64,000 bases of DNA from a virus. The notes under the pieces were generated by a model. That model was not told the origin of the DNA, searched no databases, and saw nothing but the letters and a program-made list of their open reading frames with translations. The position numbers were made by a program, and so were the translations under genes. The DNA lies in IMG/VR virus record IMGVR_UViG_3300025831_000403. One strand, written 5' to 3'. Of the stretch, positions 39,810-40,486 are shown piece by piece. Each line of letters opens with the position of its first letter. Position 1 is the first letter of the stretch.

Positions 39810-39900
39810 TGGCGGAAGCTGTGGGACTTGAACCCACAAACCCATTTCTGAATCAAACAGTTTTCGAGGCTGTGCTGCTCACCGATACAGTAGAGCTTCC
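39810..39900 (-). tRNA. tRNA-Ser(CGA)
   Basis: GGAAGCT/AGCTTCC acceptor, loop CTCGAAA, long variable arm, TTCAAGT, GCCA end. Confidence 0.88.
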
Positions 39901-39953
39901 TAATTGCTTATCTTAATAGTATTAATAACAGTCAATATTTAATAACTATAATT

Positions 39954-40044
39954 TGGCGGAAGTGGGGAGAGTCGAACTCCCAAGGCGCTATTAACACTCG
40001 ACTGCTTTCAAAACAGCTACCATCACCAATTGGTTTGCACTTCC
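39954..40044 (-). tRNA. tRNA-Ser(TGA)
   Basis: GGAAGTG/CACTTCC, loop TTTGAAA, long variable arm, GCCA end. Confidence 0.9.
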
Positions 40045-40067
40045 TAATTCATAACATAACAAAAATT

Positions 40068-40160
40068 TGGCAGTGAGTGTGGGATTCGAACCCACGGTTC
40101 CTTTTAATGGGAACGGTTTCTTAGCAGGAAACTGGTTTAAACCAACTCACCCAACTCACT
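40068..40160 (-). tRNA. tRNA-Ser(GCT)
   Basis: AGTGAGT/ACTCACT, GTTTC-CTGCTAA-GAAAC, long variable arm, GCCA end. Confidence 0.93.
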
Positions 40161-40169
40161 ATAAAAACT

Positions 40170-40257
40170 TGGCGGAAAGTGTGGGATTCGAACCCACCGA
40201 CCCATTTCTGAATCATAGATTAGCAGTCTATTAGCTTTGCCACATGCTTCACTTTCC
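40170..40257 (-). tRNA. tRNA-Ser(GCT)
   Basis: GGAAAGT/ACTTTCC, ATAGA-CTGCTAA-TCTAT, GCCA end. Confidence 0.9.
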
Positions 40258-40277
40258 TAATAACTTAACAATACTCT

Positions 40278-40367
40278 TGGCGGAAAATGTGAGATTCGAA
40301 CTCACGGAACCTTTAACAGTTCGGCAGTTTTCAAGACTGCTGGCATAAACCACTCGCCCAATTTTCC
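40278..40367 (-). tRNA. tRNA-Ser(TGA)
   Basis: GGAAAAT/ATTTTCC, GCAGT-CTTGAAA-ACTGC, GCCA end. Confidence 0.94.
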
Positions 40368-40395
40368 TTAAAATAAAACCCTTTCAATACTGACT

Positions 40396-40486
40396 TGGAG
40401 GAATCGGTGAGATTCGAACTCACGGACCTTTTTACAGACCTACACCTTTCCAAGATGTTACAATAAACCAACTCTGCCACGATTCC
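40396..40486 (-). tRNA. tRNA-Ser(GGA)
   Basis: GGAATCG/CGATTCC, ACATC-TTGGAAA-GGTGT, long variable arm, TCCA end. Confidence 0.9.

Follow-up and report, generated by a model that had tools for sequence, protein, structure and literature searches.

Why would a replicon carry six transfer RNA (tRNA) genes that all serve a single amino acid? This question is raised by a 64,000-nucleotide (nt) stretch of DNA from the IMG/VR virus record IMGVR_UViG_3300025831_000403, which was analyzed as a whole and is referred to below as the window. On its minus strand, at 39810-40486, six genes for serine tRNA (tRNA-Ser) lie head to tail, and no other amino acid is represented among them. We propose that the six genes constitute a single operon and that serine decoding gauges its transcription, a reading to which we assign a probability of roughly 60%. 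The element would probably make these tRNAs only while ribosomes slow on serine codons.

Six tRNA-Ser genes in a single-specificity array

We annotated tRNA genes using ARAGORN and the Rfam tRNA model RF00005, for which the gathering score is 29 bits. ARAGORN calls five tRNA-Ser genes on the minus strand (39810-39900, cga; 40068-40160, gct; 40170-40257, gct; 40278-40367, tga; 40396-40486, gga), and RF00005 recovers these five together with a sixth at 39957-40044, all six scoring 31.5-54.4 bits. The anticodon loop of the sixth gene (t5) reads UUUGAAA in the Rfam alignment, and we therefore assign it the anticodon UGA. The genes are listed in transcription order with their RF00005 scores and, for two of them, the score against the selenocysteine tRNA (tRNA-Sec) model RF01852, which has a gathering score of 47.

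40396-40486, minus strand: t1, tRNA-Ser(GGA); canonical U8 G9, U73, CCA encoded; 50.3 bits
40278-40367, minus strand: t2, tRNA-Ser(UGA); canonical U8 G9, G73, CCA encoded; 54.4 bits
40170-40257, minus strand: t3, tRNA-Ser(GCU); G8 A9, 6-bp variable stem with GAAA tetraloop; 31.5 bits, tRNA-Sec model 37.6
40068-40160, minus strand: t4, tRNA-Ser(GCU); canonical U8 G9, first pair A1-U72; 53.8 bits
39954-40044, minus strand: t5, tRNA-Ser(UGA); C8 A9 A10; 39.6 bits, tRNA-Sec model 42.8; missed by ARAGORN
39810-39900, minus strand: t6, tRNA-Ser(CGA); C8 U9 A10, variable arm the same as in t3; 32.9 bits

The order of anticodons is GGA, UGA, GCU, GCU, UGA, CGA. An earlier reading of the DNA letters, referred to here as the original prediction, had described a serine-only array of six genes with these anticodons in this order, and the ARAGORN and Rfam calls agree with it, including the covariance-model alignment of the sixth gene. 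The prediction had also held that the six tRNAs can read all six serine codons, which follows from the anticodons by standard wobble rules.

All six genes encode CCA, and the intergenic spacers measure 9-53 nt. The variable stems are 4-6 bp long throughout, and the discriminator base is G73 in five genes and U73 in t1, both of which are compatible with serine identity (PMC5389517). Each of the six has what is expected of a class II tRNA-Ser, namely a cloverleaf scoring above the gathering score, a serine anticodon, and a long variable arm together with G73 or U73; charging by seryl-tRNA synthetase (SerRS) would be expected. Neither ARAGORN nor RF00005 places any other tRNA gene above threshold in the 64-kb window. 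Among 200 tRNAs in 18 fetched phage loci, runs of tRNAs for the same amino acid are never longer than three, versus six here, and the array was thus rightly called unusual. In bacteria, tRNA-Ser genes are the least often arrayed of all tRNAs (0.36; PMC8421152).

A poly-serine leader and a candidate attenuator precede the array

The stretch immediately upstream of the tRNA genes contains the following elements.

40801-40829, minus strand: sigma-70-type promoter; TTGACA, 17-nt spacer, TG-extended CATAAT; 11/12 consensus matches
40692-40763, minus strand: leader open reading frame (ORF) of 23 codons, MFFVKVSSSSSSSSSSMNRGAYC, stop codon TGA
40716-40745, minus strand: run of ten serine codons, TCC AGT TCT AGT AGC TCA TCA AGT TCT TCA
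40700-40708, minus strand: region 2 (GGGGTGCTT), antiterminator arm, pairs with the 5′ arm of the terminator
40633-40667, minus strand: intrinsic terminator; AAAAAGCACTC, loop, GAGTGC, seven T; -14.0 kcal/mol
40501-40607, minus strand: tRNA-like element; acceptor, D and T arms intact; RF00005 27.6 bits (sub-threshold)

The promoter is the best promoter-like site within 39300-41500. A simple repeat aside, the ten-serine run is the only run of at least six identical residues in the six frames of the window, and a serine run of this kind arose in none of 40 Markov simulations. A run of 13 isoleucine codons at 46295-46333 (minus strand), on the strand opposite to the ORF at 46163-47449, is a simple AT repeat within a gene. 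The serine codons of the leader (TCC, TCT, TCA, AGT and AGC) sample the decoding groups of the GGA, UGA and GCU tRNAs.

In-silico folding places an antiterminator/terminator switch at 40708-40633 (minus strand). In the full leader transcript, the terminator forms with a probability of 0.99. A segment located 5-13 nt before the leader stop codon, GGGGUGCUU (40708-40700), pairs with the 5′ arm of the terminator before the 3′ arm exists, and no other segment of the leader is as good a partner for the terminator arm as this segment, region 2 (duplex -10.7 kcal/mol). The hairpin energies are -9.1 (1:2), -12.7 (2:3) and -14.0 (3:4) kcal/mol. When a ribosome footprint is placed on serine codons 7-14, the antiterminator probability is 0.98; the corresponding values are ~0.4 for a footprint at codons 16-20 and 0.73 for a footprint at the stop codon. 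The leader thus has, in sequence and in silico, the parts of an attenuator: (i) a codon-run ORF just after the promoter, (ii) a terminator before the genes, and (iii) an antiterminator that is mutually exclusive with the terminator and depends on ribosome position. As judged by these folding calculations, the leader hairpins are predicted to behave like an attenuator.

No promoter-like site was found between the terminator and the first tRNA gene, which argues that the tRNAs would be made only by read-through. The distance from the terminator to the next gene, ~25 nt, is too short for a second promoter. The tRNA-like element in between carries a 43-nt insert in place of the anticodon arm and does not encode CCA; it could be a degenerate tRNA or else serve as a handle for processing the leader away from the tRNAs.

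A model for transcription gauged by serine decoding

Based on these observations, we propose the following mechanism. RNA polymerase would initiate at 40829-40801 and transcribe the 23-codon leader. With charged tRNA-Ser plentiful, the translating ribosome would pass the ten serine codons, reach the stop codon and mask region 2 (40708-40700), whereupon the terminator hairpin (40667-40633) would form and transcription would stop before the tRNA genes. With charged tRNA-Ser scarce, the ribosome would stall within the serine run, leaving region 2 free to pair with the 5′ arm of the terminator; the resulting antiterminator would let the polymerase cross the tRNA-like element and transcribe the six tRNA-Ser genes. 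The trigger would be a shortage of tRNA-Ser, because extra tRNA helps only if tRNA, and not serine, is limiting. Since this is the useful trigger, the unit is probably best understood as a back-up source of tRNA-Ser that regulates itself, a description that also fits the counter-defence idea considered below. The model bears directly on the question raised by the array: a poly-serine leader can sensibly control only serine tRNAs, so one serine-specific gauge would be a sufficient reason for the serine-only content.

Several observations weigh against this model. In an untranslated, truncated transcript the antiterminator prevails as well (probability 0.94), so that termination in the basal state would hinge on translation and kinetics. 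The leader has a weak Shine-Dalgarno-like motif, AAGG, ~10 nt 5′ of its ATG, the terminator loop is 11 nt long, and TCG, the sole strict match of the CGA tRNA, is missing from the leader. Moreover, no tRNA-Ser array was found in the fetched loci of relatives, which were collected by searching two neighbour proteins and LigA against IMG/VR, and a profile of a nearby Macro-NADAR gene against species genomes and metagenomes; in particular, relatives of the Macro-NADAR gene have no tRNA-Ser array nearby. A leader with a serine run likewise occurs in none of the fetched loci.

Relation to known attenuators and tRNA arrays

Attenuation by leader peptides is classical for amino-acid operons (hisL, pheL, thrL, trpL) and for pheST, which is controlled via pheM. 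Like these attenuators, the proposed leader joins a short ORF with consecutive regulatory codons to an intrinsic terminator and to an antiterminator that depends on ribosome position, and its layout and distances fit theirs. It differs in what is controlled: biosynthetic or synthetase genes in the classical cases, tRNA genes here. The variable sensed must accordingly be the tRNA pool, because tRNA as an output cannot relieve amino-acid starvation. We know of no serine leader of this kind, and our full-text literature search turned up no report of tRNA genes controlled by a leader peptide. Whereas classical attenuation ties amino-acid supply to biosynthetic genes, decoding speed would here apparently be tied to tRNA supply. 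If the model is correct, the operon would provide a rationale for tRNA arrays that are sorted by amino acid. With ten codons for the same amino acid and six genes of one specificity, it would also be the simplest bench system for the idea, requiring one amino acid, a reporter and an inhibitor of seryl-tRNA charging.

The array is similar to phage tRNA clusters and to bacterial L-arrays such as the trn operon of Anabaena (PMC8421152, PMC10272220) in being a compact polycistronic array of extra tRNAs; those arrays mix many amino acids, whereas the present one is restricted to serine. The Anabaena array is silent and is induced under impaired translation, with RNA-repair genes nearby (PMC8421152). 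Control of that array involves repeats and the repressor TrcR, which act at the promoter (PMC8421152, PMC10272220), in contrast to the attenuation proposed here. Phage tRNAs that counter tRNA-targeting defences (PMC11555353), including variants of the anticodon loop (PMC10264068), provide a further parallel in that extra tRNA copies lie beside counter-defence-like genes. Unlike the anticodon-loop variants (PMC10264068), the loops in this array are canonical, and no substitutions are seen.

Two tRNA architectures and kinship with phage tRNAs

The six genes fall into two structural groups. A canonical core, in which the D stem is preceded by a 2-nt linker with U8, is present in t1, t2 and t4, which score 50-54 bits. 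U8 is missing in t3 (G8 A9), t5 (C8 A9 A10) and t6 (C8 U9 A10), and these three score 31-40 bits on the tRNA model and 37.6-42.8 on RF01852, under its threshold of 47. With a long, tRNA-Sec-like D stem and tetraloop in t3, t5 and t6, pairs five and six would include a mismatch, and a D stem of 4 bp with a loop of 8 nt is an equally good fit. Two structurally distinct copies exist for each of UGA and GCU, while GGA and CGA occur once each.

The claim that the duplicate pairs differ strongly is supported by pairwise identities of 60-74% across the array. The array genes are no closer to one another than to unrelated phage tRNA-Ser genes, and, as far as their sequences tell, the six are not recent duplicates. 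A 16-nt segment of the variable arm, TGATTCAGAAATGGGT, had been noted as shared by the CGA gene and one GCU gene; it is present exactly at 39840-39855 and 40200-40215 and nowhere else in the window, with none expected in shuffles. This segment forms a 6-bp stem capped by a GAAA tetraloop. It had been taken as a sign of duplication or recombination, an interpretation that is weakened by its recurrence outside the array, in six tRNA-Ser genes with UGA or GCU anticodons from uncultured phages with large mixed tRNA clusters. When the exact tRNA 3′-end pattern and the 16-mer were searched in IMG/VR, matches were found only in mixed phage tRNA clusters.

In a comparison set that is biased, since its phage loci were retrieved using pieces of t3 and t6, t6 shares 80-81% identity with phage tRNA-Ser(UGA) genes, which is above its identity to any gene of its own array, and the variable arm and 3′ end of t3 are common to other phage tRNA-Ser genes. 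The suggestion of duplication with anticodon switching thus holds in part: the anticodon does vary within one family (CGA in t6, UGA in its phage relatives), whereas these comparisons do not demonstrate a duplication within the array. In this family, the tRNA-Ser(UGA) genes from phages all have the invariant C8/A10, the 3-nt linker and the GAAA-capped variable arm, and are located at the following positions of the fetched loci.

L045:5408-5498
L052:7941-8031
L054:9216-9306
L067:10051-10141
L082:1258-1348

These genes reside in mixed clusters of 5-34 tRNAs, and locus L082 additionally has a tmRNA gene.

When t5 and t6 are aligned with three of the phage genes, the class II cloverleaf accounts for 95.6% paired cells, and 16/27 pairs are changed on both sides, i.e. 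are compensatory; sliding the partners reduces the pairing to at most 48%. C8 and A10 are invariant across t5, t6 and their phage relatives. We conclude that t5 and t6 belong, with tRNA-Ser genes from uncultured phages, to one covarying family. Judging by these patterns of conservation, the non-U8 genes t3, t5 and t6 are real tRNAs, not decaying genes. Their anticodons are ordinary serine anticodons, and no recoding is therefore implied.

We also compared the non-U8 genes with the (8/4) tRNA-Ser and allo-tRNAs described by Mukai et al. (PMC5389517), which they resemble in their long variable arm, G73/U73, score on the tRNA-Sec model, lack of the usual U8 and occurrence in phage clusters. The (8/4) fold itself is not shared by t5 and t6, which are drawn with a 7-bp acceptor stem, a 3-nt linker, a 4-bp D stem and a 5-bp T stem, leaving C8 unpaired; an eighth acceptor pair would be C-C, and covariation supports the 7/5 drawing. 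An 8-bp acceptor with a 4-bp T stem can be drawn for t3 only, via G8-C65, a pair to which covariation gives no support. The presence of canonical and phage-covarying non-U8 tRNA-Ser in one transcript would allow their charging, decoding and nuclease sensitivity to be compared.

Alternative explanations for the array

First, the window could be part of the chromosome of an uncultivated, AT-rich Gram-negative bacterium, in which case the array would simply comprise every tRNA-Ser gene of that cell, whether homeostatically attenuated or not. We regard this alternative as somewhat unlikely. It would account for the anticodons GGA, UGA, GCU and CGA, which are the usual bacterial ones for serine. 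The LigA homologues form a continuum from 85% to 58% identity, with some located on 0.9-2.2 Mb contigs, and a three-gene block (the NADAR gene and two small ORFs) is common to contigs of 583-785 kb that encode FtsZ and porins. Genes of envelope type (LemA, RlpA-like, pilin-like) are also present, and the 64 kb showed no virion gene. On the other hand, half of the array (3/6 genes) is non-U8, t5 and t6 are closest to tRNAs of phage clusters, and the variable arm and 3′ end of t3 are shared with phages. Tailed-phage proteins provide the only matches to the fold encoded by the gene immediately upstream, and orphans account for about half of the ORFs. The ligase, intein-containing ribonucleotide reductase (RNR), serine hydroxymethyltransferase (SHMT), exonuclease, methylase, T5orf172, Macro and ARH genes are typical cargo of large phages. 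A bacterial origin also sits poorly with the low frequency of arrayed tRNA-Ser genes in bacteria cited above (PMC8421152), and the species-genome collection yielded no relative.

Second, the operon could be a counter-defence set that replaces host tRNA-Ser lost to a tRNA-directed immune nuclease, with non-U8 bodies that the nuclease does not recognize and with the attenuator as the trigger. We find this plausible in outline but rather unlikely as a full account. The proposal draws on the two body architectures on which the UGA and GCU anticodons are each carried, on the phage tRNA-Ser genes to which the non-U8 copies are most closely related or with which they share segments, and on the gauge itself, which would open in exactly the state that loss of tRNA-Ser would produce. 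The neighbours include ADP-ribose erasers of the counter-defence type (ARH, and a DarG-like Macro domain fused to NADAR). Phage tRNAs have been reported to defeat tRNA-targeting defences (PMC11555353, PMC10264068), and VapC toxins that cleave tRNA-Ser are cited in PMC10264068. The anticodon loops of the duplicates speak against it, being canonical and nearly identical: CUGCUAA in both GCU genes, and CUUGAAA versus UUUGAAA in the UGA genes. Such loops would offer no escape from loop-reading nucleases (PrrC-type), so the nucleases evaded would need to be ones that recognize the body of the tRNA. Furthermore, PADLOC matched no defence gene beside the array, and the two sets are not complete mirror images, GGA being canonical only and CGA non-U8 only. 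A combined version, in which the serine-gauged operon serves as both a sensor of the tRNA pool and an emergency supply, would have the loss of tRNA-Ser through an immune nuclease or another insult open the attenuator, so that both structural sets are made and the non-U8, phage-type set escapes the insult. If true, this would amount to a natural feedback loop on tRNA genes that is specific to one amino acid, and to a new counter-defence logic; we consider this more specific scenario unlikely.

Third, the extra tRNA-Ser genes could make up for a host pool that poorly serves the element's demand for serine codons. The element has 26% GC and prefers TCT, TCA and AGT, which are read by the GGA, UGA and GCU tRNAs, and UGA and GCU are doubled; these three codons make up 90% of serine codons. 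However, the share of serine (7.3% of codons) is ordinary, a dedicated CGA tRNA is present although TCG accounts for only 1.1% and TCC for 3.2% of serine codons, and a constitutive supply needs no serine-codon gauge. Codon demand does not explain the tRNA set, and we hold this explanation to be very improbable.

Finally, it is highly doubtful that the poly-serine ORF and the hairpin regulate nothing, the hairpin being for instance the terminator of the 107-codon gene upstream and the tRNAs being made constitutively by leaky read-through or from an unrecognized promoter: the terminator does lie 190 nt 3′ of that gene, but a near-consensus promoter stands between the gene and the leader, the ten-serine run appeared in 0/40 simulations, the best partner of the terminator arm is positioned just 5′ of the leader stop codon, and the amino acid of the run is that of all six tRNAs.

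Genomic surroundings and nature of the replicon

The window has 26% GC and reads by translation table 11. It encodes LigA, the small and large subunits of RNR, SHMT, a DnaQ-like exonuclease, a T5orf172-helicase, five ankyrin proteins and many orphans. We consider it slightly better than even that the replicon is a phage or a phage-derived element, a leaning based on the cargo, on the relationship that t5, t6 and parts of t3 show to phage tRNA-Ser genes, and on the fold of the 107-residue protein encoded upstream of the operon. No close phage was found in INPHARED. Proteins of the window recur letter for letter on 16-49 contigs, the largest of which is 221 kb, and in two metagenome-assembled genomes with NADAR relatives, LigA is unrelated. 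Further features of the surroundings are as follows.

13681-14802: RNR small subunit, 41 kb from the large subunit and not adjacent to it
30750-31511 and 31564-32082, plus strand: split C5 cytosine methylase; the two parts match the N- and C-terminal halves of PF00145
33749-34756, plus strand: ARH
37002-38612, minus strand: DarG-like Macro domain fused to two NADAR domains
55519-59058, plus strand: RNR large subunit with LAGLIDADG intein
62840-64000, plus strand: RlaP-type RNA-repair nucleotidyltransferase (PF10127; phrog_388, E 5.5e-72), which runs past the window end

The Macro-NADAR gene is located 1.2 kb from the array, and ARH, too, is at a distance of about 5 kb or less. Together with the small ORFs at 36566-36781 and 35805-36005, it forms a block whose order is conserved on AT-rich bacterial contigs (L017, L022, L024). 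RNA-repair genes, of which the RlaP-type gene is one, occur beside stress-induced tRNA arrays (PMC8421152).

The gene just 5′ of the operon promoter (40855-41178, minus strand) encodes a protein of 107 amino acids and belongs to a family of ~140 representative clusters. Its AlphaFold2 model has a predicted local distance difference test score (pLDDT) of 96 and no match in the PDB; the fold is matched only by uncharacterized tailed-phage proteins in BFVD, with a template modelling (TM) score of 0.89. A 322-residue protein encoded at 42508-43476 is all-helical and without structural match.

A giant virus of eukaryotes was considered in view of the ankyrin proteins, the intein-containing RNR and the low GC content. 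The mimivirus early motif is not enriched (16 found versus 28 expected), and this origin was also rejected on account of the CCA encoded in the six tRNAs and of the sigma-70 promoter, intrinsic terminator and coupled translation proposed for the operon.

Directly 3′ of the last tRNA gene, an ORF at 39369-39716 (minus strand) is broken by an in-frame TGA at 39623-39625. The N-terminal motif of its product, WHVTP..NI.SI..NGL, recalls ADP-ribosyltransferase folds, and the Pfam PARP family is matched at a non-significant E of 0.21. An alternative genetic code (table 4), prompted by this TGA, was rejected, as table 11 gives long intact ORFs and table 4 adds little. Across the window, a Shine-Dalgarno-like 4-mer at positions -18 to -5 precedes only 18 of the 56 ORFs, and TAA is the stop codon in 44 of them.

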